Shown: positions 23,631 to 41,874, numbered from the stretch's first letter. The stretch is DNA of 41,874 bases from a virus (IMGVR_UViG_3300009678_000089:1-41874); one strand, 5' to 3'. Translations and numbers: made by a program. Notes: a model not told the origin generated them from the sequence alone.

Positions 23631-24089
23631 GTGGCACCCAAGATTCAGCCTAATGCAGATCGGCGGAGAGCTCTGCCGCATACTAAACAGGATCAGAAGG
23701 TTAGCAGTTATCGGAAGGGCCGGCCATTCAATAACAACTCTAAATTAGCGGAGTTGATGACGAAGCTTAGGATATCGCAACAGGAACTATCATTGCGATC
23801 GACCATTCATACCCGGACCCTATACGAATACATGACAGGACATCAGCCGATTCCCGCTCATCATATTCGGCAGATTGAAGTAGCGCTGAATCTTCCGGCG
23901 AGGGAGTTCTACGAATCGGCCGAGGAATTGTACCAGCGAGGTAGTCTCAAAATGACCCCGGCAATGGTCACTCGATTTCGCAATGTCCCTCGAGATGTAA
24001 CTGATGAGCAAGTTCAAGCACAGAAAACCATTCCACAACAAATGGCGGAACTTCCGTCGACGATTAGCAGCAACAGAAAGGCAGTGTAA
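23631..24089 (+). CDS. XRE-family helix-turn-helix DNA-binding protein
   Basis: LAELMTKLRISQQELSLRSTIHTRTLYEYMTG..IP..IEVALNL. Confidence 0.75.
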   Translation: MAPKIQPNADRRRALPHTKQDQKVSSYRKGRPFNNNSKLAELMTKLRISQQELSLRSTIHTRTLYEYMTGHQPIPAHHIRQIEVALNLPAREFYESAEELYQRGSLKMTPAMVTRFRNVPRDVTDEQVQAQKTIPQQMAELPSTISSNRKAV

Positions 24090-24346: not shown

Positions 24347-25010
24347 GGATTGGGCGCCGGCCTGCAATTCCAGTAAATACATTCGCATTGATCTACATGG
24401 TCAAGGGCGGGTGACGGTTGACCCACGGATTCAATCGGCAGTTAAAGCGCTGAATGATATCCTAGTGCGTTACAATTATCTGACTCGTCGAGCGGATACT
24501 GGCGCATATAACTGCCGGCCAATTACCGGCGGTACTGGCTATAGTATCCATGCGTATGGTGTCGCCATTGATATCAACTGGCAGTCCAATCCCTATGGCA
24601 AAACCTTAATCACTGACATGCCTCGTGCAATGGTCAATGAGATTACCGCTATCCGTACCAACAACAATTGTCCGGTATGGGAATGGGGCGGGAATTGGCG
24701 GGGCAATAAGGATGCGATGCACTATGAGATTGATTGCACGCCGGTTGACCTAGCCACTGGAATTAAAAGTAACACTCCAATCCCGATTCCACCTACACCA
24801 ACACCAGGAGATGATGTTCCAATGTTCTGTCTCGTCCAACCTAATGATGGGAGAGGAGTCTACCGCTTTGATGGTACCTCAATGATGGGGGTTCCTAACC
24901 CAACAATTTTGGGCGGCGATCAGATTGTCCTCGCAGTTCTCGGATTGCCTAACCAGGTTATTGCGGTAGATGCGGTCTGGTTTAATTCCTGGCCCATCAC
25001 TCGAGGTTAA
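24318..25010 (+). CDS. endolysin, M15-family zinc peptidase
   Basis: YNCRPITGG..SIHAYGVAIDIN (SxHxxGxAxD) and WGGNW..KDAMHYEI; Pro/Thr linker then a short C-terminal domain; start at 24315 or 24318 after AAGGGAG. Confidence 0.88.
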   Translation: MGRTTSQLRKDWAPACNSSKYIRIDLHGQGRVTVDPRIQSAVKALNDILVRYNYLTRRADTGAYNCRPITGGTGYSIHAYGVAIDINWQSNPYGKTLITDMPRAMVNEITAIRTNNNCPVWEWGGNWRGNKDAMHYEIDCTPVDLATGIKSNTPIPIPPTPTPGDDVPMFCLVQPNDGRGVYRFDGTSMMGVPNPTILGGDQIVLAVLGLPNQVIAVDAVWFNSWPITRG

Positions 25011-25021
25011 TAGTGTAATTG

Positions 25022-25118
25022 GACAAACAAAAATCCCCGGTCCTTCCTTGGGCAGAGGGACCGGGGATTTTCGGAAAGGGGAATTACATGGCAGGTAGAC
25101 GACGAAGAACACCTGTTA
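25022..25118 (-). ncRNA. candidate ~95-nt small RNA (sRNA-1)
   Basis: Minus-strand TTGACA (25154-25149)-18-TATTAT promoter; hairpin, then single-stranded CCAUGUAAUUCCCCUUUCC, then terminator. Confidence 0.5.
25030..25071. terminator. bidirectional intrinsic terminator
   Basis: AAAATCCCCGGTCC / GGACCGGGGATTTT 14-bp stem; the better U tract is on the minus strand. Confidence 0.8.
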
Positions 25119-25179
25119 ATTGTTATAATATAGGGAAGATAGGGTAACTGTCAATAGAATATAGTGATCGGGTAAGTGA

Positions 25180-25425
25180 ATGGGCTTGGAATGGTGGTTA
25201 GGATTAGCTGCGATTCTCGGCCCTATCCTATCCGGTGTGTTAGTAGCTAAGATCAATAAGACTAAATCTGCAACTGAGAATAGCCAGATCATTGCCGATG
25301 CCTCAAAGACTGCTGTGGAAACTGCTGAACTCGCTCATCACGCTCAGATCACACAATTGAATGAGGCAATAGTAACACTCGAGCTCAAGCTCAAAGAATG
25401 TTTGGAGAATCATAATGAGTCCTGA
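25180..25425 (+). CDS. membrane protein (1 TM + coiled coil), holin/lysis accessory
   Basis: N-terminal hydrophobic helix WWLGLAAILGPILSGVLVA; lysis cassette position; TG-T-TATAAT extended -10 at 25121-25129. Confidence 0.7.
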   Translation: MGLEWWLGLAAILGPILSGVLVAKINKTKSATENSQIIADASKTAVETAELAHHAQITQLNEAIVTLELKLKECLENHNES

Positions 25426-25639
25426 CCTGCCAGGGTATATCCGCACAATTGTTCCGATGATTGTCGGTTGGATCGGAGCGCTACTATTGGACTGGGGGAT
25501 TGACTTTACGAACGAGGGTCTAACACAGTTCGTTGTCGTACTAGTTGGTGGGATCTATTACGTTGTTGTTCGCCTGTTGGAAAAGCGTTGGCCGAAAGCA
25601 GGTAGGTTGCTAGGGGTAGCTAAAACTCCCGTGTATTAA
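25415..25639 (+). CDS. holin (actinophage type, 2 TM)
   Basis: IRTIVPMIVGW...YYVVVRLLEKRWP..G.LLG..KTPVY pattern. Confidence 0.75.
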   Translation: MSPDLPGYIRTIVPMIVGWIGALLLDWGIDFTNEGLTQFVVVLVGGIYYVVVRLLEKRWPKAGRLLGVAKTPVY

Positions 25640-25653
25640 TCACTGCATCCAGC

Positions 25654-25698
25654 AAAAAGAAAAGGCCCGGATCAAATTAATGATCCGGGCCTTTTTCT
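25654..25698. terminator. bidirectional terminator where the two genome arms converge
   Basis: AAAAGGCCCGGATCA / TGATCCGGGCCTTTT 15-bp stem with A and T tracts on both sides. Confidence 0.9.
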
Positions 25699-25752
25699 AT
25701 GAGCGACCAGTTGCGTGTGAGTGCTCCCTGGTCTGTTGCCTATTTAGTTGTA

Positions 25753-26202
25753 TTATGCATCAGTCAGAATTAACTGATGTCGATCTCTAAGATAGTTCAT
25801 TATCGGGGCAGAGTCAATTGTAATAAGCAGATCAGCGAGAGATGGGAATGAGTAACCGTCGTAGGAATTGTCCGTAGTTTGACTGTCGCCAATATGGTCT
25901 ACATGCCAATGCCGGCGAGTGATGTTCATTCCGATCATTTTACACATTAGATGGATTTGCGGGGCGGGGGAGCAGGTAATAACAATAAGGGAATCGGCAT
26001 TAACGGTGACATACCAATCGCCAGACATTTGCTGAGCTACAACAACTGCCTCTTTCATTACCTCCCGTGTGTACTTATTCAACATCCATAGCATGTCAAT
26101 TGAATCGAGCGTTGTTCTAACGCCGTCAATATCGTCACTGTCCATGATGACTGCTGAGCGCAGAATTGGTTGGACATCAAGTTCTTCTTCGTCAATCTCC
26201 AT
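25753..26202 (-). CDS. hypothetical protein
   Basis: ORF 25753..26259; start likely at ATG 26202 (MEIDEEE). Confidence 0.7.
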   Translation of the reverse strand: MEIDEEELDVQPILRSAVIMDSDDIDGVRTTLDSIDMLWMLNKYTREVMKEAVVVAQQMSGDWYVTVNADSLIVITCSPAPQIHLMCKMIGMNITRRHWHVDHIGDSQTTDNSYDGYSFPSLADLLITIDSAPIMNYLRDRHQLILTDA

Positions 26203-26347
26203 CTTTCTTAACCACCTTCTCTTTCTTGATAACATAGCCAGTAGCTTGGATTGTTCCAAATGCTGATGTCAACGCCTGGATGGTTTTCCAATGATGAATG
26301 TCCAGATATTTAGGAGTCCACTCATGGATAACTTTCCGTCGTTTCAA
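26192..26347 (-). CDS. small basic hypothetical protein (51 aa, MKRRKVIHEWTPKY...), missed by the ORF track
   Basis: TTGA overlap with the upstream stop; GAGG upstream; fills the gap. Confidence 0.6.
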   Translation of the reverse strand: MKRRKVIHEWTPKYLDIHHWKTIQALTSAFGTIQATGYVIKKEKVVKKDGD

Positions 26348-26580
26348 CCGAAGCCTCGCTCAATTAACTGTGCTTCCCAAATCCGGTTGTTCCATTGTGA
26401 CTCAGTAAACTGACAGGCGGCCTTGAATTCTGCCTCCATCATTCGGGCATTGTGAATTAACACCTCTGCTGGGTCTAGCTTTGATGTCTCGAGATACTGA
26501 GTTTCAATAAGGCGGACACAATGGTAAGTGTCATTCGGGACTTTGATATTGCAGATAAGTTTAAGGTATGAGCGCCTCAA
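26344..26580 (-). CDS. hypothetical protein
   Basis: Tightly packed ORF. Confidence 0.6.
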   Translation of the reverse strand: MRRSYLKLICNIKVPNDTYHCVRLIETQYLETSKLDPAEVLIHNARMMEAEFKAACQFTESQWNNRIWEAQLIERGFG

Positions 26581-26871
26581 CTAATCGACCCCCATTTCGT
26601 CCTTTTCAATCGCTGCATTTAATTTAGCAGCGAAAAACACGTTCCATTTTGTGGGGATTCTATTGCCCAGGAAATACATTGGAGTATTAAGGTCAGTTGG
26701 TGGACGCAATGATGCAGCATCCCAAGTTCTTACCATTGCGTCGCAAATCCACTCGAGCATTGCTTCGAGCTCTAATTCGCGCTCAGTATGTTCCGATGGT
26801 GGATCAGGGTTAAAGGTGCTCAATCTTCTTCCTAACTCTAGGCGGATCGAATGCCGGGTAAATGTTCTCAA
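26581..26871 (-). CDS. hypothetical protein
   Basis: ORF overlapping the 3' end of the ERCC4 gene; GAGGAAA upstream. Confidence 0.6.
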   Translation of the reverse strand: MRTFTRHSIRLELGRRLSTFNPDPPSEHTERELELEAMLEWICDAMVRTWDAASLRPPTDLNTPMYFLGNRIPTKWNVFFAAKLNAAIEKDEMGVD

Positions 26872-27514
26872 CTGTTTTCCTCCCCACGCCCGGTACTTCC
26901 ATTAACCGTTTCTTTGACACTTTCCAACGTACTGGACTCCCGTTGAAATGTTTAACAATATTCCTAGCTGTCTTAATTCCGACGCCTGGCAACATCGAGA
27001 GTATATGAGCTTGCCAATCTGCATTTGATGCTCGACCCCAATCATCCTCTATTTCGAGCTGTCGTTTAGAACTGAGTGTAGAGTGCTCAGTTTTCCGTGA
27101 CCATTTATCCACAATCTCCACGTAATCAATTGTATCGGAAAGGTTGTTGGTCTTGACGATGATAAACCCTTCCGATGCTAGGGTCAATAGAATCTGCTCA
27201 ATCATGTCTTTCGTAATTACTCGGTTACTATAGGATTGGTTAACCAGAATGCCGTCGCTTGTGTAGACCAGTTTACCTTCAAGCAAGATAATGCGGTAGT
27301 CAAGTTGCCCATTGTGTAGCATCTTGAGCCGTTGATCGCCGAGCCTTCCATCAGCAATAGATGATAAGAAATCATTGATCTCCTTCCGCTGTATTCCAAC
27401 TGTCGCCGCATTTTCAACTAGGATGTCGCAGCCAAATCTCTCGGGGAATGTCGATACTTTGTTAGCAATAGACATTAGGGCTTTCGGTTCACCACTACTG
27501 CTAACCCAGATCAT
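26810..27514 (-). CDS. ERCC4 (XPF/Mus81/Hef-like) structure-specific nuclease with tandem HhH motifs
   Basis: GCDIL..GIQRKEINDFLSSIADGRL..Q..IILLEG (ERKxxxD variant); HhH motifs LPGVGIKTA and VPGVGRKT. Confidence 0.88.
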   Translation of the reverse strand: MIWVSSSGEPKALMSIANKVSTFPERFGCDILVENAATVGIQRKEINDFLSSIADGRLGDQRLKMLHNGQLDYRIILLEGKLVYTSDGILVNQSYSNRVITKDMIEQILLTLASEGFIIVKTNNLSDTIDYVEIVDKWSRKTEHSTLSSKRQLEIEDDWGRASNADWQAHILSMLPGVGIKTARNIVKHFNGSPVRWKVSKKRLMEVPGVGRKTVENIYPAFDPPRVRKKIEHL

Positions 27515-27840
27515 TAAATCTCCCCGGACTGGTACCGATCAACTAGGCGGTTAATTGCGGCAGCGTAATCGAAGAATGAGTCCACGTCAAACGCAATGCC
27601 AGTGTAATAAACTATCTGGTCATCTTCCTTTTTATATGGAACTGATGCAGGAGGTTTCGTTAGTGGCAGCATGATTGCCACAACGTTTGTAATGCCATCT
27701 TCTGTTAATACCTGTGACGGAGCGAAGATGATATCGCCCATGATAAACGGCATCTGAGCTTCATTGTTTAATAGGTGCAAAGCGGAATTCGGCCAACCCT
27801 CACCTTCTACATCTAGAACTTTGTCGATATCGTCATCCAT
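27514..27840 (-). CDS. hypothetical protein
   Basis: Start likely at ATG 27840 (MDDDIDK) after AAGGAA. Confidence 0.65.
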   Translation of the reverse strand: MDDDIDKVLDVEGEGWPNSALHLLNNEAQMPFIMGDIIFAPSQVLTEDGITNVVAIMLPLTKPPASVPYKKEDDQIVYYTGIAFDVDSFFDYAAAINRLVDRYQSGEI

Positions 27841-28582
27841 TGCGTTCCTTTCGCCAATTAGCAGTTGCCTGTAGATAGTCAACTGCGAAGTTACTAAACT
27901 CCTCGTTCTGCCATTCTTCACGCTCACGATCTTTAATCGTAGTAATGCGTCGACCGACTCGCCCCTTGTTCAACATTAAGGTTGTGTGCGGCAAATGAGG
28001 TACCCGTTTCTGCCCACGAGGCTTACTTCCGACAGGCCCAAACATCTCCTTGATAATTGGGTCCCTTTCCTTTGGATTGAGCGGTTCCATTTCACTCGTC
28101 ATAATCACGTGGCCCGGGAATTCCAGGATTAGTCTAAGGAATTTATTCCACATTGGGTTAATGATCTGGTAATCCGAGTTACCTTCAAACCCATCTCCAC
28201 CTTCCTTTTTCTTCTTTGCGAAATAAACCTCCATATCCATTCCATAGTTCCGAACACAATAGGAGTTCTGACATGCACTCCAAGCGCTAGTCATTCCATC
28301 GACATTCAGCCAATCCTGTTTATCCGCTTGATTGTTAATTGACTTTAATGCCTGGGTCGCTGGTTCCCAATCGTCCGGGAAAATCTGCGTGATATCTAGG
28401 TTCGGGAGTTTCAGCCTGCTATTCATCCGGGTCCAGGCAAAGTCATTATCGAGAACATACATTGTTGAATTGGGTGTAGCCTCAGCGATGGTCAATCCAC
28501 ATCGAGATTTACCGGCGCCAGGTCCACCGAATACCAAGATCCTTTCCGGATCGTTGGGATCTGGCGGGATAATATCTGTCAT
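27833..28582 (-). CDS. AAA/RecA-like ATPase (Sak4-like single-strand annealing protein)
   Basis: Walker A FGGPGAGKS; Walker B WLNVDGMT; KDR near the C-terminus; neighbour of an exonuclease. Confidence 0.75.
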   Translation of the reverse strand: MTDIIPPDPNDPERILVFGGPGAGKSRCGLTIAEATPNSTMYVLDNDFAWTRMNSRLKLPNLDITQIFPDDWEPATQALKSINNQADKQDWLNVDGMTSAWSACQNSYCVRNYGMDMEVYFAKKKKEGGDGFEGNSDYQIINPMWNKFLRLILEFPGHVIMTSEMEPLNPKERDPIIKEMFGPVGSKPRGQKRVPHLPHTTLMLNKGRVGRRITTIKDREREEWQNEEFSNFAVDYLQATANWRKERNG

Positions 28583-28866
28583 AGTTTCCCCTTAATTCCG
28601 AGTTCTTCCCTGACGACTCTAATCTCCTCAGCAATTGCGCGGCGATGTTTAGCCAAGGCAAGTCTGAATCTAACAAAGCCGACCTCTCCGTCAGGATAAG
28701 CCATCTGAATCTCCAGAAAATTCCGACCAGGCGCATCAGGGAATTCGACTTTGACAACTTGTAGGAATCGTTCGTCGTCACAAATATACCCCTCGCCCCA
28801 CACTCTCCATTCCCGTGATTTAAAAGTCTTGAGTATTGGTTGACTCTGTTCCGTTGTTGCTGGCAT
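28579..28866 (-). CDS. hypothetical protein (possibly PC4-like ssDNA-binding)
   Basis: LQVVKVEF..GRNFLEIQ..GFVRF beta pattern followed by a helix; weak resemblance. Confidence 0.45.
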   Translation of the reverse strand: MPATTEQSQPILKTFKSREWRVWGEGYICDDERFLQVVKVEFPDAPGRNFLEIQMAYPDGEVGFVRFRLALAKHRRAIAEEIRVVREELGIKGKL

Positions 28867-29257
28867 TAAACTTCTTCTCCTCTTCTTTCTCGAGGTGTGT
28901 CATATGATCCATATGGACTCTGAACTTCCAGTCAGCATAGTACATTTTATTATGCAGGTCTGCGATATGTAGGGCGTCTGACTGTGATGATGGGTTGGCA
29001 AGATAAGCAATTAGTAGGCATAGTGGGCAGGTGCCGCAACCCGATTTCGCGCAATACTTCCGAATGAATGCATTGCCAAGGTCATTGGCGACCATGAACT
29101 TCTCATTGGTATCTGAGTTCTTCCACTTATCCAGCGCCGGATTATTAGCATCTTCATGAACCCATTGCTTTAGATTATCAGGTGCCGGGTAGCTTTTGCC
29201 AAACAATCTTTGCTGGTTTTCCGTCGTTGGATTGTTTGTCGGATTCTCCGAGCTCAA
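28820..29257 (-). CDS. hypothetical protein with a Cys cluster (CAKSGCGTCPLC)
   Basis: ORF overlapping both neighbours; GGAGAGGA upstream. Confidence 0.6.
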   Translation of the reverse strand: MSSENPTNNPTTENQQRLFGKSYPAPDNLKQWVHEDANNPALDKWKNSDTNEKFMVANDLGNAFIRKYCAKSGCGTCPLCLLIAYLANPSSQSDALHIADLHNKMYYADWKFRVHMDHMTHLEKEEEKKFNASNNGTESTNTQDF

Positions 29258-30440
29258 GATCCTCTCCCTCTGCCTTTGATTTCCTCGGCCTTTGAACTGT
29301 CACATACTGTTGTTGATACGCTGGGAATTTCCGCTCCGGCATAGGGTGGTCTACGTATCGAATAGTCCAACCTTCGCCAACTGCCTTGTTATCTGGAAGC
29401 TTAGTTACGATCTCCTTTGCCTCAGCTTTTAGCAACCTCATTTCATCGTCACGAACCTTACACTCATCCTGTAGAGTTAACACTCGGAATGCAATTGCTT
29501 CCAACTTCTCGAGTTCCAAAGCGTCAAGGTCGCCATTAGGAACAGTTCGTTTTTTAGGTGCATCATAATTGTGCAGGAATTTGGTATCGCAGAAGAAGTT
29601 TTCCTCGGTACACTCCATTGATATAGGGCGGCCAGTTCTAACAGATTGCTCCAACATCTCCACTCTGTTGTAATAGTCTGCTTTCCTGGGGAAGTCCTGG
29701 GGATTAACAAACTCATATTTCGTTCTCTTAACTTTGAATGCGATGTCGGAATCTGGGTCGTCAATCGGCACCTTCCAACCGTAGAGGAATATTACTGGCA
29801 ATGCTGATTCGGCGCCGAAATAATAACTCCCGCCCTGCCATTTATACTGACGGATTAATAGGTTCTTAATATCATTGGCGGGCGTATGCATATATTTCAT
29901 TGCCTCCTTCCACAACGCCTCACCCAGTGTCTTAACTTCGCCAATGAATACCTGGCCCAATTTCCATTCACAGTTGACCGGCGCCTCGACCAATTGCAAT
30001 AGACAATCAAGGTGCCCGTTAATCTCCACGCCATCATACAGTTTCCATGTCACGCCAAATTCCGCATCTGAGTCCTTTAGCTGTCGGGCTGTTGGAATAT
30101 GGCGCCAATCAGCAGGGTCAGATGGATCGAGAATCTTGAACTTCATTCCCGTTTCTTTATGAATTCTCTTTATGCATTGCTTTAACGTTATGGGCTCGAG
30201 AATCGACGATACCTGCATGGCTTCAGTTGCCCACGAGTCGCCCTGTGTGCCTTTCTCCCGGCCTTTCTGGGAGGCTAGGTAGGAGAGTCCTACCGGGCAG
30301 CTTCCGACGCCGGAGGCGCGAATATAGACGGTTCCGTCAAATAGATAAACACTAGCTCTGGAGTAGGGATTTCCTGATTTCGGATTCACTGGATATCCTA
30401 GTGTTGGTGGCCTGTCTGATTTGATGTTATCCAATGGCAT
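29178..30440 (-). CDS. Cas4-like PD-(D/E)xK exonuclease
   Basis: IRASGVGSCP, INGHLDCLL, IGEVKT, YKWQGGSY (QxxxY), C-terminal C..C..H. Confidence 0.8.
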   Translation of the reverse strand: MPLDNIKSDRPPTLGYPVNPKSGNPYSRASVYLFDGTVYIRASGVGSCPVGLSYLASQKGREKGTQGDSWATEAMQVSSILEPITLKQCIKRIHKETGMKFKILDPSDPADWRHIPTARQLKDSDAEFGVTWKLYDGVEINGHLDCLLQLVEAPVNCEWKLGQVFIGEVKTLGEALWKEAMKYMHTPANDIKNLLIRQYKWQGGSYYFGAESALPVIFLYGWKVPIDDPDSDIAFKVKRTKYEFVNPQDFPRKADYYNRVEMLEQSVRTGRPISMECTEENFFCDTKFLHNYDAPKKRTVPNGDLDALELEKLEAIAFRVLTLQDECKVRDDEMRLLKAEAKEIVTKLPDNKAVGEGWTIRYVDHPMPERKFPAYQQQYVTVQRPRKSKAEGEDLELGESDKQSNDGKPAKIVWQKLPGT

Positions 30441-30462
30441 TGAGTTCCCCGTGAAGTCAAAG

Positions 30463-30502
30463 ATGGCCGGTAATGCTCACTGACTGTTGCATTACCGGCC
30501 AT
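30463..30502. terminator. perfect 14-bp hairpin (terminator or processing site)
   Basis: ATGGCCGGTAATGC / GCATTACCGGCCAT. Confidence 0.6.
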
Positions 30503-30518
30503 TCTTATTGGCTAGATG

Positions 30519-30797
30519 TTACTGTTCGTAGAGGATGTCTGACTCGAATAGGCTCGAGTATTTCTGTTCATCCCAAGGGTTCTGTTCCTCGCCAGTTTCA
30601 TCTACAATACCGATATCTTCGAGAATGGCAGACTCAATGGCATTTTCGATTGTGGAGTCCAAATCGAAAATCGCATCATGTACCAAATCCAAGTCAATGT
30701 CATCTGATGCCAAGGACTCTTTGCGAATTCGGTACGTGTAGATGACAACGATTTCCTCCTCGCCTACACACAATGTCTCATGATGGTAAGTTGTCAT
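30519..30797 (-). CDS. small, highly acidic protein
   Basis: 92 aa, very rich in D/E. Confidence 0.7.
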   Translation of the reverse strand: MTTYHHETLCVGEEEIVVIYTYRIRKESLASDDIDLDLVHDAIFDLDSTIENAIESAILEDIGIVDETGEEQNPWDEQKYSSLFESDILYEQ

Positions 30798-30803
30798 GGC
30801 GTG

Positions 30804-31424
30804 TTAGAACTCCCACAAATCAGCGTTCAGAACCTGGCGCCTCAATTGCTTTGATTCTTTAACAACGTCCAGGTCCAACGCTGCCTCCTGGAATTCGTCA
30901 TAGCTATTAGAGTTTGTAACGAGGTCAACGATTTCTTGCGGGTAAGTGGCAGGTTCCGACGTTGCGGCAACGGTACTACCATTATCCGCACGATCCTCGT
31001 CAGTTTCAGGAAGCATGATTTGCCACTTGAATTCTTTACCGTCATTGCCCGTGCCAACAGATTCATGACGAATCCAGGTGCAACTAAGTCCGATCCAAGA
31101 CTTAGCGATATTTGGCGGACCGTTCTTTTGAATCTGCTCGATGCCGCCCGTTTCAATGAGGGTGTCAATGAGGCGACCAATCCCCGAGCTCTCATTGAAC
31201 ATATGGTTCTTCAAATCACTGACATCAACTTCATTCGGGGAGATTAGCGGGGCCTTCTTCCCGCACCCATAGAAGTTCTCAATCTCTCCGATTTCGCCGC
31301 CGGCATTAACGGTGAGCTTTAGGGTAGTACCGCCGTTGTTATTCACGTCAAAGTACGCATCTGTTACAGGACCAGTGAATCGGTCCTCCAATCCAGATAC
31401 GGTACCCCATCCTGCTTCTGTCAT
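30804..31424 (-). CDS. hypothetical protein, possibly ssDNA-binding
   Basis: Start at ATG 31424 after GAAAGGTG; beta-rich N-terminal domain, acidic linker; position in the recombination module. Confidence 0.45.
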   Translation of the reverse strand: MTEAGWGTVSGLEDRFTGPVTDAYFDVNNNGGTTLKLTVNAGGEIGEIENFYGCGKKAPLISPNEVDVSDLKNHMFNESSGIGRLIDTLIETGGIEQIQKNGPPNIAKSWIGLSCTWIRHESVGTGNDGKEFKWQIMLPETDEDRADNGSTVAATSEPATYPQEIVDLVTNSNSYDEFQEAALDLDVVKESKQLRRQVLNADLWEF

Positions 31425-31517
31425 TATATATTCACCTTTCAATGTGGTTTGCTGGTTTATCCCTGACCCTGAAAATGGGAGGGCGAATAATAAGATTACC
31501 TCGTGTTAATAACTAAG

Positions 31518-32039
31518 TCAATCAAATCTTCCGGTGCGCATGGCTGCGTGTAGAATTCCTAGTGGTTGTTCCAATACGGCTTTATGGCCGGGAACAACCT
31601 CGCATAATTTCCTGGACAATGCTTCGCTACTCTGAACGATTAATTCAGTGAGGTTATTGAAGTCCCCGATAGCTAGACATTGTAGTGTCGTGACAATTTC
31701 TCGAGGGTAGTTCGTCATGGTAATCTTGATAACGTGACGGTCCTCTATTGCCTCGACAGTTGACTCGGGGAATGGAATGAAATCTCCACGGTAATGATGG
31801 GTTACTTTATGTAGATCATAGGTGAACATTTCAATAACCTGCATGAAACTCGCTCGTGCCAGGCCAACGTCAACGATGACTTTATCTGGAATTTCAACTG
31901 TGGCGGTAGCGGTCATCCAATTTAGTTCAGTTGGCTGCCATTCATGCTCGAGGAATTCCCCGTCGAGTTGAGGTAGCGAATCAATCAGTGGTTCAAGTTC
32001 AGCAAAGATGCTCTCAATATATTCATCTACACTATCCAT
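31518..32039 (-). CDS. hypothetical protein
   Basis: GGGAGA RBS; overlaps the helicase stop. Confidence 0.7.
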   Translation of the reverse strand: MDSVDEYIESIFAELEPLIDSLPQLDGEFLEHEWQPTELNWMTATATVEIPDKVIVDVGLARASFMQVIEMFTYDLHKVTHHYRGDFIPFPESTVEAIEDRHVIKITMTNYPREIVTTLQCLAIGDFNNLTELIVQSSEALSRKLCEVVPGHKAVLEQPLGILHAAMRTGRFD

Positions 32040-34173
32040 TGTTCTCCCATACCAAGCTCTCCATCCACCAATTCGGGATAAACCTTCTTTTATTCCAGAT
32101 GTTCTTCATGAACTGTTGGTCCATGATATATGTTACACAGTGGTCAGACTTACTTCTAACTCCCCGACCTGACATTTGAACGAGAGAACGAATGGTTTGA
32201 ATAGAGTACCAGTCGTTGCCGTTTCGGCCATTAGCTCGGGAAGAGATGAGCCTGTCTTTAAGATTGGGGAATGGGATTTTGGCGATGATGACAACTCGGC
32301 AATCATCATCTTTAAAATCAACCCCACGGTCAAGTGAGGGGGCAATGAGGATTGATCCAGGCGTCGCTCTATACTTAGCGATTGCCCCTTCTCGCTCTTT
32401 AGCGTTACTGTAAGTAACAACTGTTCTTCCATCTTTCTTAACCCTTTCTGCTAGGTAGTTCATTAATTCATAACTCACCGCATGGACTAGGATTCTGTCG
32501 TTGGGATGAGCTCTACACTTTTCCGCTACTGCTTCCCGCATTACCGGCCAAGCTTGTTCCTTATTCTTATACGTCATGTTCGCACTACCGATATATTTAA
32601 TAGGGCGGTTCTCAATTGGGAAGGTCATTGGCACCTGGACGTTCTCGAACTCTTTATCCCAGCCCAAGTCCATCGCCATATGTTCAGCGCTGATAATTGT
32701 AGCGGACATTGCGATCCAAATGCCGCCATGACGCCATAGATTATGTTGTCCGTAGTTATTAACGTAGACTGGTTTCAGTATCAATGCAGAATCGTGAGGT
32801 TGCCGGACCCAAACATTTTCTTCGTTTGATAGTTCCGGTGCAACAGACTGGACCATATCAAGGACCGTTTCCCACCGCTTGAATTCTTCGATATCCTTAA
32901 CAGTAGACTTAGGTAGAGTCTTGATATGAGTAATGAGCTTGTCAAGTACCGTATTTGTGAGCCAGTCGCCAATTTTCTTATACCTCGATCCGTCTTTAGG
33001 AACCTCCTCGCCAATACTCCTCAAATATCTCGCCCCAATCCAACATTCTGCGAATCCCATAAGCTCAGATTCAAGAATATCTGCCTCGTCAGCGACAACC
33101 AAATCTCTATACGAGAACTTACTATGGTAAGCCTTATTGGTCTCGTACAGAAAGTATCTAGTATTAAGGACTGCCAAGGGAGACATCGCTGCATCATTTT
33201 TGGCGATCTTATAGGGACAATATTCAATTCCGGTTGTGTCATCTCGTTCAGGACACCAGATACACTTTGTACCAGTACAATGCGAGCAATTAGTGTCCGG
33301 GCTTCCATATATAGTTGGGTAGTTGGAACGCCCACGAATGACTCGGGCATAATCGAAGTCCTTTACGAATTGATCTTGTAGACTCAGGCTCGAGCAGATA
33401 TACGTTGTTTTCTTTCCGGTCATTAGCCGGATCATCTCACCAATTAGAGTTTTTCCCGATCCCGTTGGAGCGTCAATAAAAATGAGCTTTTGACCGCGAT
33501 TAATTGATTCCAATACAGTTCCAACAGCATCCAACTGATGAGGTCTAATTCCTTCAACCCATTCAGGCAGGCGAGCAAGCTCTTTTTCCCAATCACTTCT
33601 TGGAATAGAGTCATTTGTGGGAAGGTAATGCTGAGTTGCATGTTCTGGTTCTGTGACAAGAGTTAACTGTCCTTCTCCAACATATTCATTAGGACGTTGG
33701 GTTTGAATGTCTCGTTGATTGTGTTCGCCTGATGCCTTGACTTCTTCACTGCCCTTGTCATTGTTGCGTTGAATTTCAATTGCCGATTCCGCGCCCGATC
33801 CCGCTTTCGTTTCCGTTGTAGTCTTGCCCGCTTCAATTTCACTCGGTGCTGAGCTGTCATCTAGTCTAGTCCTTTCAAGTTCAAGTAATACTCCCACCAA
33901 ATGAGAACAACCACTGGCGGCACGAAATTCTCCACCAGCATGAGTCCAACATTCACATTGCCATTTACTGCCATCATAAGTGACATGGTAAGTATCGTAT
34001 TCGTCGGATAGCTTTGAGCTCCCGATGACTGTAAAATCATTGTCGTTGTTCTTTCGGACAGAGCGTTGGCGTGCTCGCTTCTTTAGCGAATCCGATACTC
34101 CAGACAAATCGCCGTACTTCATGCGCCATTTGGTGGATTTCGGCTTCGACTTACTCGTGCCCCAATCTGTCAT
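32032..34173 (-). CDS. DinG/XPD-family SF2 helicase with Fe-S Cys cluster and N-terminal SWIM zinc finger
   Basis: RPHQ Q-motif, APTGSGKT, LQDQF, GRSNYP, CSHC..C..C..CPY, VADEAD, MSATI, RGVDF, KIPFP, QMSGRGVRSKSD; SWIM YHVT..CECW-x-CSH. Confidence 0.92.
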   Translation of the reverse strand: MTDWGTSKSKPKSTKWRMKYGDLSGVSDSLKKRARQRSVRKNNDNDFTVIGSSKLSDEYDTYHVTYDGSKWQCECWTHAGGEFRAASGCSHLVGVLLELERTRLDDSSAPSEIEAGKTTTETKAGSGAESAIEIQRNNDKGSEEVKASGEHNQRDIQTQRPNEYVGEGQLTLVTEPEHATQHYLPTNDSIPRSDWEKELARLPEWVEGIRPHQLDAVGTVLESINRGQKLIFIDAPTGSGKTLIGEMIRLMTGKKTTYICSSLSLQDQFVKDFDYARVIRGRSNYPTIYGSPDTNCSHCTGTKCIWCPERDDTTGIEYCPYKIAKNDAAMSPLAVLNTRYFLYETNKAYHSKFSYRDLVVADEADILESELMGFAECWIGARYLRSIGEEVPKDGSRYKKIGDWLTNTVLDKLITHIKTLPKSTVKDIEEFKRWETVLDMVQSVAPELSNEENVWVRQPHDSALILKPVYVNNYGQHNLWRHGGIWIAMSATIISAEHMAMDLGWDKEFENVQVPMTFPIENRPIKYIGSANMTYKNKEQAWPVMREAVAEKCRAHPNDRILVHAVSYELMNYLAERVKKDGRTVVTYSNAKEREGAIAKYRATPGSILIAPSLDRGVDFKDDDCRVVIIAKIPFPNLKDRLISSRANGRNGNDWYSIQTIRSLVQMSGRGVRSKSDHCVTYIMDQQFMKNIWNKRRFIPNWWMESLVWENNG

Positions 34174-34175
34174 AA

Positions 34176-34364
34176 TTAACTAAGCTCCTTCCAGATGTTC
34201 ATGAAACTACCATCGGACCTAAGAATAACCACCTGAACCGTGTTCTCATTATCGCGGAAGATATCACGGACCTTATATAGTGTATCTTGACTGTGGAGAT
34301 TGTCCTTTGTTGGAACTGAGTGAGGTTGAGCGCGGTAATTGGTCATGTATTTAAGGCTGTCCAT
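34176..34364 (-). CDS. hypothetical protein
   Basis: Start at ATG 34364 after AAGGAGGAG. Confidence 0.7.
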   Translation of the reverse strand: MDSLKYMTNYRAQPHSVPTKDNLHSQDTLYKVRDIFRDNENTVQVVILRSDGSFMNIWKELS

Positions 34365-34509
34365 TTGTCTCCTCCTTTTCCAATTCGCGGTGCGGGCCGT
34401 CATAGACCTGGTAATTCAATGCATGTTTATGGCAGTAATACTCGTCGTATTCAGTGTCCACTACAACGGCGGGGTTTAAGCACACGTTGCACTTTCGTTT
34501 CTGCGGCAT
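34351..34509 (-). CDS. small zinc-finger protein (52 aa, MPQKRKCNVC...YCHKH), missed by the ORF track
   Basis: GGAG RBS; CxxC...CxxH; translated by hand. Confidence 0.7.
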   Translation of the reverse strand: MPQKRKCNVCLNPAVVVDTEYDEYYCHKHALNYQVYDGPHRELEKEETNGQP

Positions 34510-34548
34510 GTAATTAACTCCAATCAATTCTCATTTAATCCAATAGAC

Positions 34549-34603
34549 AACAATAGGCCCCGATCGGTCCTAAATTAATAGGACCAATCGGAGCCGTATT
34601 GTT
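34549..34603 (-). terminator. long imperfect hairpin downstream of the acidic-tail gene
   Basis: ~24-bp stem whose + strand C-A mismatches become G-U pairs on the minus strand. Confidence 0.65.
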
Positions 34604-34697
34604 CGGGGCTTAACCAATTACTTACTCACTGTGAATGCTGTGACATTAGCAGAAAGATTAGCAACGTGGATAAGGACACCCCGATTATGGACAATGA

Positions 34698-35150
34698 TTA
34701 CTCGTCGTCATCGTCATCATCATTGTCATCGGAATCGTCGTCGAGATCATCGTAATCTTCATCGTCATCATCATCGTCGTCGGTTTCGGTTGCGCCATTC
34801 TCCGCAGCCTTTTCCGCACGCTTTGCACGACGCTCTTCCTTCTTAGTTTCCCGAGCGTCAATCTCATCTTCCGTCATTGGGCGGAATGTATTGGAATCCT
34901 TCTTGATAATCAGAATGTACCGATCATCCTTTTCCGGGTGCTCATCGTAGTGAACTTCAATTCCGACGAAGTTATACTCACCACGAACCTTAGTCCTAGC
35001 TGCCTGAACACTAGCCTCAGAACTGTACTCACGAATTCCGTAATACTGGTCATCTACCGGAACCTCGTTAACCAAATTCATAATTACAGGTGTTGCGCCA
35101 GGACGCTTAGTCTTTCGTGGCACATAATTCTCGAGCCGGGTCAAAGCCAT
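34698..35150 (-). CDS. hypothetical protein with a basic helix and a ~27-residue poly-Asp/Glu tail
   Basis: ORF with its own promoter, structured leader and downstream hairpin. Confidence 0.8.
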   Translation of the reverse strand: MALTRLENYVPRKTKRPGATPVIMNLVNEVPVDDQYYGIREYSSEASVQAARTKVRGEYNFVGIEVHYDEHPEKDDRYILIIKKDSNTFRPMTEDEIDARETKKEERRAKRAEKAAENGATETDDDDDDDEDYDDLDDDSDDNDDDDDDE

Positions 35151-35196
35151 TGTTATTCCGTCATCTTTCTGGGGTTAAGGGATGTTTATAATTTTA

Positions 35197-35345
35197 GTGG
35201 CGGGGGATAACCGCCAGGATAACCGTAGAATTAGCCTCGGAGGTAAAGAGGATTAAACCTCGGAGGGTAACCGGGGAGGTTATCCTGCCGAATATTTCCG
35301 GGGGAATCATGCCAGAAATTCCCGGCGATCTATCCCCCACCACGT
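35197..35345 (-). ncRNA. candidate ~150-nt structured RNA or 5' leader (sRNA-3)
   Basis: Closing stem 35197-35209/35331-35343 (G-U only on the minus strand); inner stem 35215-35224/35278-35287; begins just after a promoter. Confidence 0.6.
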
Positions 35346-35350
35346 CCTGA

Positions 35351-35379
35351 ATACTAGCAGGTATATACGGTCAAAGCAA
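35351..35379 (-). promoter_or_regulatory. promoter
   Basis: TTGCTT, 17 nt, TAGTAT with extended TG. Confidence 0.7.
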
Positions 35380-35450
35380 ATCGAATGTCTAAGTCCCCGG
35401 TAAATGGGAGGAATTCCCACCATCGTTAGGGGCACCTAACATTCGGCCGT

Positions 35451-35735
35451 CTATGCTAGCACGATAATTTCTGGCTCGATGATTACCAATTGGGAATAGA
35501 GTAGATCATATTCCGCTGGGTCAAGGATGGCTTCAAGTTCCTGGAGTTTCGATTGGAGATTGTAGCTAAGAGGGTTGCTGTTCCAGAGCTCGATGAATTC
35601 AGTAATGGCATTGTCTGCGTCCATTGGATTGACAACTGGGCCTTGAATTGTTGCTACGAGTTGTGCTGCGGCTTCATCAGCGGCAGTAGCGTAGGCATTA
35701 ATGCTTACTGATCCGAACGGCGGTAGGTCTGACAT
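35451..35735 (-). CDS. acidic hypothetical protein
   Basis: GAGGAGG RBS; abuts the upstream stop. Confidence 0.75.
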   Translation of the reverse strand: MSDLPPFGSVSINAYATAADEAAAQLVATIQGPVVNPMDADNAITEFIELWNSNPLSYNLQSKLQELEAILDPAEYDLLYSQLVIIEPEIIVLA

Positions 35736-36647
35736 TTAATCCTCCTCAGTTACTTCGTAGAATGTTTCTCTCATGCTTGCCTCTGCCCGAATTCTATCAA
35801 TGATTTGCTCACTGCATTCTGGTGCTGCCTTCTTCAATCGGCGTAGTGATTTCTGCTGGAGTTCTACATAATTATAGCAGGCGCCTAATGCGTGCCCAAG
35901 ATTATCAATAGCTGCTTCCAATCTTTCTTCCAAAATGCGGGTTATTCCGGGCAGTGGAATGTCAGGGAGATTATCTGGTTTTAATGCACGTCGTGCATCC
36001 TTCAAAGCCTTAAAGCGTTCATCAATGAGTACGGCATATGACTGCTCCTTAGCCGCCTCATTGAGATCCTTCATTAACCTAAGCTGTTCGGTACACAATG
36101 CTCGAGTATCTGCGTCCATTGAATCTAGAATCCCTTTACGTAGGAATTCGGCCATTCCATGTACTAATGCAGTACGGAGAACATCTTGACTGGAAAAGAA
36201 AACACCCTGCTCACCATTAATCTCAGCATTAGCGATTAGTTTAGCCAATGAGTTTAATGGTGCGGGGTGATAGATTCTAAGACCGTCTGCTGTTGTGGTT
36301 ATTTTCGCTAGGTCAGATGCCCAACTTGCTGTTCCCTTTTCAATATCTAGTGTTAGGAATGGAGCTAGGTAGGTGCTATGTCCATGAACATCTTGAGTTG
36401 GTACTTCCATTTTCCAAGGAGTATCAATAAAGTCATCAGCATGAGCTCGTAGCTTATCTGCCATTTTCTGCGGGTTAGTCTCTCGCAGAATTTGCTTGAT
36501 GCCTTTCTGCTGCGTCCTTTTTCTCTCATGTTTACTAGTGCCCCACCCACCACCGTCTTTATTGGTGGAAGGTAGGGCAATAATTCCGTCTGGCAATTCG
36601 AGTTGTGTTTCAGCTTCGTCGTCGTCATCGCCATTGGCTGATGGCAT
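35736..36647 (-). CDS. hypothetical protein (~303 aa, helical C-terminus)
   Basis: ORF 35736..36716; start likely at ATG 36647 after GGGGAAAGG; own promoter. Confidence 0.75.
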   Translation of the reverse strand: MPSANGDDDDEAETQLELPDGIIALPSTNKDGGGWGTSKHERKRTQQKGIKQILRETNPQKMADKLRAHADDFIDTPWKMEVPTQDVHGHSTYLAPFLTLDIEKGTASWASDLAKITTTADGLRIYHPAPLNSLAKLIANAEINGEQGVFFSSQDVLRTALVHGMAEFLRKGILDSMDADTRALCTEQLRLMKDLNEAAKEQSYAVLIDERFKALKDARRALKPDNLPDIPLPGITRILEERLEAAIDNLGHALGACYNYVELQQKSLRRLKKAAPECSEQIIDRIRAEASMRETFYEVTEED

Positions 36648-36736
36648 ATGGTTAGCCTTTCCCCTTGTAGTTTCCCCTGTTGAACTGATCGCATTAGGCC
36701 AAAAATCGAGGATCATCTAAAGCGACAAGTGTAGGA

Positions 36737-36765
36737 AGTCTACTCTCTGAATAGCATCGAGTCAA
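36737..36765 (-). promoter_or_regulatory. leftward promoter
   Basis: TTGACT, 17 nt, TAGACT. Confidence 0.75.
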
Positions 36766-36788
36766 TAGGCATGGTCCTTTCCAATGGT

Positions 36789-36918
36789 ATGGTATTAATT
36801 TGGTAAAGCAATAGTATGAATTAATGCCCCGACATGCGTTATCCGTATATCCGTGCCTCAGAACCACGGATATAGGGATAACGCATTACTAGATATTGGT
36901 TTACCAAATTGATACCAT
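36789..36918. repeat. nested ~130-bp imperfect inverted repeat
   Basis: Outer arms 36789-36813/36894-36918 (23/25 match); inner arms 36834-36855/36865-36886 (21/22 match). Confidence 0.9.
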
Positions 36919-36981
36919 CATATTAAAATACAAAAGTCCTCATTTCCCATAGGATCAGAGCACTATCGGGAGGAATATTGA

Positions 36982-37010
36982 TTGACTCGACTCTAACCCC
37001 AGTGTATAAT
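36982..37010 (+). promoter_or_regulatory. rightward near-consensus promoter
   Basis: TTGACT, 17 nt, TATAAT. Confidence 0.85.
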
Positions 37011-37016
37011 GTTATT

Positions 37017-37106
37017 AGTGGTTCCGGCCATCCCCTCTGTAGACCGGAATCCCTTTACACTGAGAAATGCCCCTGGAACTTGAGCGATCCAGGGGCATTT
37101 CTCTTT
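37017..37106 (+). ncRNA. candidate ~90-nt small RNA (sRNA-2)
   Basis: Consensus promoter; hairpin GGTTCCGG/CCGGAATC with a C-rich loop; 16-bp terminator stem 37062-37103 plus TTT; no ORF. Confidence 0.7.
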
Positions 37107-37129
37107 GCGTATCAACCTAATCCAATTAG

Positions 37130-37342
37130 CTATTCGCCACAAGCCTTTCGGCAAATATGGCACATTGTGAACTGGTAGGCGGGATGGTTTCTTTTCTGCT
37201 TGAATTCAATCCGCTTCAATACCACACTGTTATTACCCAACTCCTTTAAGCCACAGGCAGTTGACATTTCAGTTCGTCCTGCCAATGGGCGTAAGTGATA
37301 GACTCGAGAATGGAGCGGGTCATTTGGCATTCTAGAGGACAT
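37130..37342 (-). CDS. small zinc-finger protein (H..C..CxxC)
   Basis: Start likely at ATG 37342, with GAGGGG 7 nt upstream. Confidence 0.65.
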   Translation of the reverse strand: MSSRMPNDPLHSRVYHLRPLAGRTEMSTACGLKELGNNSVVLKRIEFKQKRNHPAYQFTMCHICRKACGE

Positions 37343-37754
37343 TGACCATCCCCTCATGTGATGTTGCGGTAACTAATTTCTTACAGGTTCCATCGGGCTT
37401 CAACCTATAAGCACCATACTCATCGACCTTGAAAGATTTATTGGTCTGGAATTCTACATACAAGGTTTGTCGGACACGAAATATATTCCAATCGACGATG
37501 ACTGAATTAATCCGGTCGATGGTCTTTCGGTCTTGATAACCAAACATACAGAATCGGGCATGGTCTGTGCGATTATAGGGAAACACTACAATTGGAACGC
37601 CATCTTGCCAAATTACTGTCTGACCATTCTTCCCCTTTCTAGCTAGGGTATCCCAGGCTATTTGTTTGGTATGCGGGAGATCCTCCTGACGATTCATGAC
37701 TTCTGCTAGGTGTAGATAATTAACTCGAGCTTTACGTCCTCCGAAGTTGGGCAT
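37332..37754 (-). CDS. hypothetical early protein
   Basis: 140 aa ORF; GYQDRKTIDRIN resembles a recurrent phage motif (recollection, unverified). Confidence 0.7.
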   Translation of the reverse strand: MPNFGGRKARVNYLHLAEVMNRQEDLPHTKQIAWDTLARKGKNGQTVIWQDGVPIVVFPYNRTDHARFCMFGYQDRKTIDRINSVIVDWNIFRVRQTLYVEFQTNKSFKVDEYGAYRLKPDGTCKKLVTATSHEGMVNVL

Positions 37755-37767
37755 GATTATTTACTAA

Positions 37768-38196
37768 CTAAGGGATGATGAGGTTTTTTGGCGGCACGAT
37801 GAGATTAGAGTCACTGCCTGTTATTGCGGCGACAGATTCGTTGACCTTATCAAAGTGTTCTGATTGAATGCTGATGATATGATCGACAACGCGCTCATAA
37901 TAGTTGGCGAGGAATTTGCTGCGAGTAACCATCGAGATATTAGTGGTCAATCCAGAGCGCCGTTCAATATGTTGGCGAGTCACGAAGGTTGGTTGGCCGT
38001 TAAGAATCAATGCTGGCTGGGGAACTTGAATCAACGCAAATCGCTTAGCTACTTCATTAACATTGTTTTCCTGAATCCTTGTAATACCGCAGACCTGCAT
38101 CATCAGGACAATTGTGTTGGTGATTTCAGTTTCAGATGGGTCGGCGTGTAGACCTTCCCAATCTTCTACCTTATCCCAGTATGCTCGGATTGGCAT
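37768..38196 (-). CDS. hypothetical early protein
   Basis: AAGGAG RBS; abuts the upstream stop. Confidence 0.75.
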   Translation of the reverse strand: MPIRAYWDKVEDWEGLHADPSETEITNTIVLMMQVCGITRIQENNVNEVAKRFALIQVPQPALILNGQPTFVTRQHIERRSGLTTNISMVTRSKFLANYYERVVDHIISIQSEHFDKVNESVAAITGSDSNLIVPPKNLIIP

Positions 38197-38574
38197 TTAG
38201 TCTCCTTTAATCTGGGTTGGAGTTACTAGCGTGTAATCATCTTCATCTACGAGCTCGAGAAAGATACAACCATCGCGCCGAGTGAAATGATAGGGATGCG
38301 GGGTATGATCGTTAAGAGCGTCGAACATTCTTTCTTCAAGATCAATGAGCCATTCCAATTCCTCCTCTCTTGCCATTTTAACTGTCAGAGTCCAATCGGC
38401 TTCCCAATTTTCCGGGTCTTTGCCGTCCTCGTCACAGATATCGCATTCGTAGTGCTCAATGTCCCAGGTGTCTAGGTACACTGCAAACTTTCTGACCTGG
38501 AACGACAATGGGCCTTCATCAATTAGTAGGCCAGTTTCAACACCGTATTTACCGTTAATCAGCACCGTTTCCAT
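38197..38574 (-). CDS. acidic hypothetical early protein
   Basis: GAAAAGG RBS. Confidence 0.75.
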   Translation of the reverse strand: METVLINGKYGVETGLLIDEGPLSFQVRKFAVYLDTWDIEHYECDICDEDGKDPENWEADWTLTVKMAREEELEWLIDLEERMFDALNDHTPHPYHFTRRDGCIFLELVDEDDYTLVTPTQIKGD

Positions 38575-38601
38575 TGTATCATGCCTTTCTATAAATTTGG
38601 G

Positions 38602-38990: not shown

Positions 38991-39059
38991 AATTCCTCTT
39001 TCCATTTAATGTCGGACATGACAGTACCCCGATTACCATTACAGTAACCGGGGTACTAT

Positions 39060-39239: not shown

Positions 39240-39242
39240 CTG

Positions 39243-39323: not shown

Positions 39324-39331
39324 TTAGATCC

Positions 39332-39424: not shown

Positions 39425-39520
39425 TTATCCTCTTTACGATAGGTTGGGGGATGATGCACCGATTTCCCAAATGGTATCACACCGACATAGAACACCGATG
39501 CACCATCCCCATTGAGTATT

Positions 39521-40092: not shown

Positions 40093-40391
40093 TACTTCCC
40101 CTTGTTCATCCTGCTAATCAATACTCTACGGTACTGCATTCGGTTAGGCTTATCCTCCCGCTTTCCCGGAATCAAATAACCGTCGGGATGGATATAATTC
40201 CTAGTCGAGACTTCACCAAACCTATTAATCGTATCTTCACGCTTCGTATGGCAGTTAACGCACTGAATTACCAGTAGCGTTCCCCACGATGGTTTACGCT
40301 CAGCATTGATTGGCTTCCAACTATGCCCAATTGTTCTACAGGTAACCCAGCTATCAGGCCAGGTATTAGTCAGTTTATTCACAGCATTCAT
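40092..40391 (-). CDS. zinc-finger protein (CRTIGHSW..CVNC..RNYIHPDGY)
   Basis: Motif recalls a small actinophage protein family; AAAGAGGA RBS. Confidence 0.75.
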   Translation of the reverse strand: MNAVNKLTNTWPDSWVTCRTIGHSWKPINAERKPSWGTLLVIQCVNCHTKREDTINRFGEVSTRNYIHPDGYLIPGKREDKPNRMQYRRVLISRMNKGK

Positions 40392-40405
40392 ATCGTCATC
40401 CTCTT

Positions 40406-40588
40406 TCATAGCTCGAATACTTCCTGTGCTTTCCTGCCCCGACCATTCCCAGCTTTCTTGACAATTTCATCGGTACGCATTCCACGCTCCCATTGGGTAA
40501 TGGTAACTGTGCACTCATTAATTGGAACCTTTGGCGGAGCGTATTCTTTCTCGAGTTTCTTGTCAACAATTAGGTCGAGGCTATTCAT
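40406..40588 (-). CDS. hypothetical early protein
   Basis: Tightly packed ORF. Confidence 0.65.
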   Translation of the reverse strand: MNSLDLIVDKKLEKEYAPPKVPINECTVTITQWERGMRTDEIVKKAGNGRGRKAQEVFEL

Positions 40589-40592
40589 CAGA

Positions 40593-41347: not shown

Positions 41348-41417
41348 TTCATTCCTCTTTCTGTCGGTTGAATTTCGGGAGGGTTATTGGGGGAGGTTTC
41401 CCTCCCCCGAATTTCCC

Positions 41418-41810: not shown

Positions 41811-41874
41811 GGTATTTCCTCTTTCGGTTTGTTCGGCCGGTTTGTTCCGACAGGGATCATAGTAGCAGGTTCTA

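Follow-up and report, generated by a model that had tools for sequence, protein, structure and literature searches.

Small RNAs (sRNAs) with a C-rich loop, such as RsaE, and antisense regulators of phages, such as the c4 RNA of P1 and P7, are among the described systems closest to the subject of this report: three structured non-coding segments, here called units 1, 2 and 3, in the virus record IMGVR_UViG_3300009678_000089, whose 41,874 bases were taken whole as the window. Cluster K mycobacteriophages carry 13-bp start-associated sequences (SAS), with a single reverse copy in four K1 phages and a function given as unknown (Pope et al. 2011, PMC3203893); the passages of that paper that deal with SAS leave open whether the binding partner is RNA or protein, and the role is still called unknown in PMC11373665. 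In the par locus of pAD1, which specifies Fst, convergent RNAs share a terminator, a direct repeat lies over the Shine-Dalgarno sequence (SD), and a stem in the mRNA hides the SD (PMC7472228). The 6C sRNA binds many mRNAs via C-rich loops without a chaperone (PMC6486639). The antisense regulators of phages include P22 sar, lambda OOP and aQ, and PAK_P4as15, and phage antisense RNAs that block translation have precedent (PMC12197685).

In the window, we find short sequence tags at the SDs of about a third of the early genes and, in the predicted open part of each of the three units, the exact complement of one of them. What is new here is that one small genome combines three tags with a mirror unit for each, as read from the sequence, which holds the predicted folds, two promoter–terminator cassettes, the tag counts and the complementarity. 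We lean, by a modest degree, toward the reading that the units act as RNAs that would pair over the tagged SDs and lower early translation. Here the minus strand is taken as early and the plus strand as late, which we infer from gene content: the plus strand encodes a terminase, a P22-like portal, a capsid protein, an SU10 adaptor, an HTH_3 protein, an M15 endolysin and two small membrane proteins, and the minus strand ERCC4, a Sak4-like AAA protein, a DinG-like helicase and numerous small open reading frames (ORFs). The hits for the 59 ORFs scanned included no sigma factor, RNA polymerase or integrase, which for the first two agrees with an earlier note on this DNA. That note had proposed a panel of RNAs directed against ribosome-binding sites (RBSs). 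Pairing with the phage's own early genes is supported, through the tag counts of unit 2, the long duplex of unit 3 and, more weakly, unit 1; this support does not extend to three independent sRNAs, to a single family, or to the early-to-late switch or host shut-off that the note had thought possible.

The first tag, AAAGAGGA, occurs at six sites in 83.7 kb (both strands), against 0.85 expected. Five of these precede early starts by the spacing of an SD; the remaining one, a reverse copy, lies in the loop of unit 2. The tags, unit 2 and its early-strand neighbours are as follows (source in brackets).

41817..41824, minus strand: AAAGAGGA tag, SD of ORF 41810 (tag search)
41353..41360, minus strand: AAAGAGGA tag, SD of ORF 41347 (tag search)
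40399..40406, minus strand: AAAGAGGA tag, SD of ORF 40391 (tag search)
39428..39435, minus strand: AAAGAGGA tag, SD of the 30-amino-acid hydrophobic ORF 39424-39332; 11-nt exact match to the unit 2 loop (tag search)
38994..39001, minus strand: AAAGAGGA tag, SD of ORF 38990; also pairs with the unit 1 linker (tag search)
35735..35744, minus strand: GAGGAUUAAA, SD of the ORF that immediately precedes unit 2; matches the loop exactly over 10 nt (pairing search)
35351..35379, minus strand: possible weak unit 2 promoter, TTGCTT-17-TG.TAGTAT (read from sequence)
35197..35345, minus strand: unit 2, a 149-nt closed multi-helix fold, flanked by ORF 35735-35451 and by the acidic ORF 35150-34698 (fold)
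35245..35256, minus strand: apical 12-nt loop of unit 2, UUAAUCCUCUUU, sole reverse copy of AAAGAGGA (fold, tag search)

Matches of at least 8 nt to the unit 2 loop are found at 5/55 auto-called own starts versus 13/1184 in related phages (Fisher p 8e-4), and none of 47 related loci reaches its share of matched starts. On the curated set, the loop mirrors 7 of 61 starts, or 6 without ORF 39424, whose SD is the longest exact match and which was added to the curated starts after the match was noticed, being absent from the auto-called set. By comparison, the 1292 large hairpin loops of related phages, 231 of them anti-SD-like, each mirror at most 4 of the 61 curated starts. The complementarity to early RBSs that had been claimed for this genome is real, in tag counts as in exact matches. 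Unit 2 lies on the strand of its neighbours, has no U-tail terminator, and is preceded by a promoter-like site (7/12 plus an extended -10) that falls under the threshold of the promoter scan. Given this weak promoter and the missing U-tail, unit 2 is probably a structured piece of early mRNA, maybe cut out from it. In shuffle tests of duplex energy, which covered five seeds and in which core-fixed shuffles hold the anti-SD core constant, a CCUCC bulge of unit 2 that had been singled out as an anti-RBS segment was equalled by 179/300 core-fixed shuffles and was dropped as a seed.

The 30-amino-acid ORF (39332-39424, minus strand) follows a long hairpin at 39445-39512 and has a type I toxin-like build, with no Pfam match. 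About 200 nt upstream of it, in an early intergenic gap, lies a Pistol ribozyme (Rfam RF02679, 64 bits, E 1.6e-9; 39626-39693, minus strand).

A single long pairing is predicted between unit 3 and its convergent neighbour, the last gene of an early operon.

36982..37010, plus strand: unit 3 promoter, TTGACT-17-TATAAT, 11/12 (promoter scan)
37017..37106, plus strand: unit 3, a large-loop 5' hairpin followed by a 16-bp perfect terminator hairpin at 37062-37103 (fold, cassette scan)
37028..37037, plus strand: core of the unit 3 loop, CCATCCCCTC, which recurs in the DNA as a direct repeat at 37346-37355 (sequence match)
37130..37342, minus strand: 70-amino-acid hydrophilic Cys/His ORF, the last gene ahead of the unit 3 terminator (no Pfam match)
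37346..37355, minus strand: GAGGGGAUGG, SD of the 70-amino-acid ORF and predicted unit 3 target (pairing, fold)

The duplex between the unit 3 loop and the SD of ORF 37342 has a calculated energy of -28.1 kcal/mol over about 15-17 bp, 10 nt of it exact, and is matched by 0/1335 foreign starts (start regions called in related phage loci), 0/300 shuffles and 1/300 core-fixed shuffles. GAGGGGAT is confined to two places, this SD and the unit 3 loop. The SD and AUG of ORF 37342 are themselves predicted to be held in an 8-bp hairpin. Unit 3 resembles the RNA II of par in its SD-covering direct repeat and predicted SD-hiding mRNA hairpin, and would do so in its convergence and a putative shared terminator hairpin. 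The terminator geometry fits par, with a weak minus-strand tail that is absent from the list of strong terminators. Unlike in par, the target closes a long operon, with no promoter of its own found, and a single repeat is evident, a second one not having been found. The target protein is hydrophilic and not an Fst/Ldr-like hydrophobic membrane peptide, so unit 3 would be RNA II-like without membership in the par family. The look-alikes of ORF 37342 in the Atlas score 0.91-0.92 and are unnamed. A par-like scan of 1415 called genes, 411 of which are followed by a hairpin, recovered unit 3; among those shown, most other long matches were the RBS of the next gene. The CCCUUU linker of unit 3, tried as a seed, is predicted to be paired (P ~0), and 230/300 shuffles did equally well.

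The second tag, AAGGGGAA, has five sites: three early starts, one intragenic site and the linker of unit 1.

40096..40103, minus strand: AAGGGGAA tag before ORF 40092 (tag search)
36659..36666, minus strand: AAGGGGAA tag before ORF 36647 (tag search)
28586..28593, minus strand: AAGGGGAA tag before the Sak4-like AAA ORF 28582 (tag search)
25125..25154, minus strand: unit 1 promoter, TTGACA-16/18-TATATT/TATTAT, 11/12 (promoter scan)
25022..25118, minus strand: unit 1, a weak 5' hairpin, an unpaired linker and a strong U-tailed terminator (fold and cassette scan)
25073..25090, minus strand: exposed segment of unit 1, CAUGUAAUUCCCCUUUCC, which mirrors AAGGGGAA plus an AUG (tag search, fold)
25088..25147, plus strand: 19-codon ORF opposite unit 1, the basis of a lysis-module alternative (start listing)

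Unit 1 is placed between the endolysin and holin-like genes and is antisense to both. It could therefore be mainly a cis-antisense RNA, or an interfering promoter, that delays lysis, an explanation that is compatible with pairing over tagged SDs by units 2 and 3 and that we consider a possible, though not a probable, account of unit 1. It would cover the RBS and start of the 19-codon ORF, a textbook RBS plus ATG whose SD (-12.5) is the strongest among the starts listed for 24900-41874, and phage PAK_P4 offers a described case of an antisense RNA linked to an endolysin gene (PMC12197685). The unit 1 promoter also shares sequence with an extended -10 of the plus strand (TG.TATAAT, 25121-25129) that faces the holin-like genes, where mutual occlusion is possible. 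On the other hand, the mini-ORF spans the minus-strand promoter and stops 32 nt short of the next start, and the unit 1 linker also mirrors the tag of three early genes.

Taken jointly and on auto-called starts, the three segments match 10/29 early and 0/26 late starts, with one unit per start; on curated starts the counts are 11/33 early and 2/28 late (p 0.013). As a share of all 55 starts, their union reaches 18% here versus 17% in the best related locus. Among 14 related loci, 35 tags yielded three intergenic same-strand reverse copies, two of them buried in stems and one weakly open, versus two of three tags with such copies in the window. When units 2 and 3 are read on their other strand, no start codon follows the tag at a proper spacing, so these two are not merely RBSs read backwards.

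All three units lie at the coordinates that the earlier note had given and are predicted to fold strongly (z = -5.6, -5.8 and -6.1 for units 1, 2 and 3; 0/200 shuffles as stable for each). Their C/U tracts, which had been described as exposed, are unpaired in the minimum-energy folds, but the probability of being unpaired varies from 0.93 for UUCCCCUU through 0.49 for UCCUCUUU to only 0.17 for CCAUCCCCUC. A covariance-model scan of the whole window against Rfam (E up to 10) gave seven matches, none in the units, so no family was matched there (6C, RsaE, c4, sar, OOP, 6S and YrlA included) and a tRNA-like, 6S or Y RNA identity was rejected. A good promoter had been proposed ahead of each unit; this holds for units 1 and 3 only, which are preceded by the genome's sole sigma-70-type promoter loci with 11/12 consensus positions. 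These two units also run against the neighbouring genes, as had been said, and each has its own promoter and terminator in the sequence, unlike unit 2. The common plan of about 90 nt that had been seen in them is one of layout and not of sequence, since 249/500 shuffles align equally well, and we do not treat them as one family.

The whole-window scan for a promoter followed by a terminator 45-220 nt downstream returns exactly units 1 and 3. The promoters alone are within chance (16 of 11/12 grade in 20 shuffled sequences), as is the number of cassettes (12 weaker ones in the 20 shuffles, at least two in 2/20). A terminator of -20 kcal/mol or better at this distance is found at only 2.3% of positions, so the chance that both promoters have one is about 5e-4. 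The two terminator hairpins, at -31.5 (unit 1) and -29.9 kcal/mol (unit 3), are two of the three strongest terminator-like hairpins. A plainer explanation is that the units are terminators and structures that stabilise or process mRNA, with C/U mirrors, owed to chance or to old local duplications, that form no duplex in vivo. The hairpins at 25027-25074 (unit 1) and 37062-37103 (unit 3) do lie directly behind genes and can end transcripts from both sides, and neither significant accessibility-corrected energies nor conservation were found. Yet this explanation does not account for the two best promoters being aimed into hairpins against gene direction, for the five-plus-one distribution of AAAGAGGA or for the neighbour duplex of -28 kcal/mol, and we judge it unlikely.

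A number of results weigh against pairing over tagged SDs as the function of the units. (i) The model gives the unit 3 loop an accessibility of only 17%, and the antisense strand of unit 3 has a more stable fold than the unit itself (-47.5 vs -41.7 kcal/mol). (ii) The tag match of unit 1 is marginal (p 0.045), with 2/47 related loci equally high, and its opposite strand is a true RBS, ATG and 19-codon ORF. (iii) The segments were initially chosen because they looked anti-SD, and the controls remove this selection only partly. (iv) When duplex energy and opening energies were summed for 61 curated own start regions and 1300/1335 foreign starts, the best own targets (-13.5, -10.8 and -14.5 kcal/mol for units 1, 2 and 3) were not better than foreign ones, with P(any of 61) of 0.81, 0.35 and 0.35. 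This test is conservative, since most of the foreign set has a higher G+C content. (v) While the unit 3 duplex stands out from shuffles, the best duplexes of unit 2 and unit 1 are matched by 136/300 and 32/300 core-fixed shuffles, respectively. Because anti-SD RNAs pair with SDs everywhere, complementarity alone is weak evidence. (vi) No homologue of any unit was found by blastn against 139 loci or by pattern scans of viral contigs. (vii) Of 16 related records, whole or nearly so, 11 have a tag on at least three starts, but only one of these 11 (G009) has a clear mirror loop, and the closest relatives, G002 and G004, have none. (viii) Among Cluster K phages, Pixie (18 SAS) and TM4 (10 SAS) showed no reverse copy in the stretches scanned; a tag thus does not require a mirror.

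Several foreign starts also pair better with the unit 1 linker than does any own start, as would be expected if the RNAs acted mainly on host mRNAs or on competing phages, in shut-off or exclusion, through generic anti-SD loops. The units do resemble 6C (B11) and RsaE in having unpaired C/U-rich loops predicted to bind G-rich RBSs. They differ in being encoded by a phage, in lacking an Rfam match and in that the loops, those of units 2 and 3 above all, fit non-canonical tags particular to this phage rather than generic G-rich tracts. In spite of the precedent of 6C, with its many targets (PMC6486639), we find such a role for the units distinctly improbable.

The homologue searches returned the following. 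Two blastn matches to unit 1 were rejected, one within coding DNA (L038, 21/23) and one an ordinary RBS plus ATG (L020, 18/19). The pattern of promoter plus unit 3 core had 42 matches in viral contigs, none with the unit 3 fold; the exact patterns of units 2 and 1 had none, and a loose unit 2 pattern had 11, none homologous. The G009 mirror is a 13-bp perfect hairpin whose 12-nt loop complements that phage's own tag (z -7.3); it lies opposite to the strand of the tagged genes and has no promoter match. It is the last of three large hairpins in a gap at L192 14270-14560. Weaker mirror candidates are present in G006, G008 and G011. Promoter–terminator cassettes occur in eight related loci, and for those of L018, L052, L058 and L034 no convincing neighbour target was found. 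Three cassettes unrelated to the present units are at L018 7704-7845, minus strand (G013), which is antisense to early genes and has a fold z of -5.1; at L052 17506-17624, plus strand; and at L058 1228-1289, minus strand. In addition, an unrelated high-GC viral contig contains a short promoter–terminator unit with a long unpaired CCCAUCCCCUCCCCCUC tract (L144, about 1450-1560, minus strand).

In the right part of the genome of mycobacteriophage Anaya, we counted 16 forward SAS; a single copy in reverse lies within the loop of a hairpin (P(unpaired) 0.67; z -3.9) in the gap between genes 96 and 97, behind a second strong hairpin (L221 31790-31920; JF704106, ~59,790-59,920). As with the SAS of Cluster K, the tags of the window are private RBS motifs in one orientation on a subset of non-structural genes (five for AAAGAGGA, three for AAGGGGAA). 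A lone reverse copy away from gene starts is likewise true of AAAGAGGA and ambiguous for AAGGGGAA, whose reverse copy precedes the 19-codon ORF. Unlike SAS, the window tags are 8-10 nt rather than 13 nt long, serve one to five genes each and are unrelated in sequence, and there are three of them with three mirror units, two of which have their own promoter and terminator. The pattern of a short phage RNA that has a promoter of its own and blocks a phage mRNA through pairing is also that of sar, OOP, aQ, PAK_P4as15 and c4, but each of these has only one or two cognate mRNAs as targets, for the most part in cis, whereas targeting of several genes through shared SD tags is predicted here. A search of the literature, mostly at the level of listings and excluding supplements, found no description of an RNA that mirrors a phage RBS tag.

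The tags could instead be sites where a protein binds DNA or RNA, or the hairpins could be SD decoys read from the other strand, with no RNA–RNA pairing. This would suit the SAS partner left open by Pope et al. (PMC3203893), the HTH protein of the phage and the minus strand of unit 3, which folds at least equally well with an SD-like tract in its loop, but is very unlikely, as the best and most regular fold of unit 2 is that of the anti-tag strand and the promoters of units 1 and 3 would produce that strand.

If the units do pair over tagged SDs, the phage would mark groups of early genes with private SD variants, and the three units would present exact complements in predicted open loops. Unit 2, within or cut out of early mRNA, could exert feedback on its upstream neighbour as well as on the genes tagged with AAAGAGGA. 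Unit 3, as a convergent antisense RNA, might block the 70-amino-acid last gene of the operon, and unit 1 might serve as a broader RNA against RBS and AUG, acting on the AAGGGGAA genes and on the plus-strand mini-ORF ahead of the holin-like genes, and possibly in cis on the lysis module as well. Transcription, pairing in the cell, repression and its timing are the inferred parts of this scheme. Since host-type promoters would fire early, a stable RNA would accumulate and act as a delayed brake on early genes rather than at once; silencing in a carrier state is an alternative outcome. A further step, which we put forward as speculation and think doubtful, is a three-channel translational address code, in which the tag assigns an early gene to a group and every group has a separate mirror RNA that reads it. 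It is similarly doubtful that such a code would set timing by RNA–RNA pairing in place of sigma factors or a phage polymerase, with the SAS of Cluster K as the one-channel case. As the phage encodes an HTH_3 regulator, RNA is not its sole candidate regulator.

This HTH_3 (XRE-type) protein (23631-24089, plus strand) closes the structural block and has weak tblastn matches in L071 and L050. A bidirectional terminator at 25660-25695 marks the meeting point of the late and early strands. Upstream of the orphan ORF 36647, nested long inverted repeats at 36789-36918 (arms of 25 and 22 nt) would form a 130-nt AT-rich hairpin, which could be an origin or a structured leader. No convincing relatives were found for ORFs 36647, 35150 and 37342. 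The capsid protein of the nearest relatives is 52-61% identical, and relatives of the helicase reach 47%; no prophage relative was found in genome contigs. The holin-like ORF matches four Streptomyces phage records, which is the sole basis for suggesting a Gram-positive host. DNA of the phage was found in a groundwater run, which may be its source, with identical pieces in all four freshwater runs compared, and no RNA run was among the 13 sequencing runs with phage DNA. The pieces in the four freshwater DNA runs are short and mostly identical, with patchy coverage and no variant letters in the units, and so carry no information on covariation.

The case rests on the sequence statistics of one genome. 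Little is known of the means by which phages that lack a polymerase or sigma factor of their own turn their early genes down, and the question of what binds the Cluster K SAS dates from 2011; for both, one mirror RNA per RBS tag is a concrete idea. If true, three tag–RNA pairs in a 42-kb genome would show multiplexed control, which could be useful for orthogonal translation switches.

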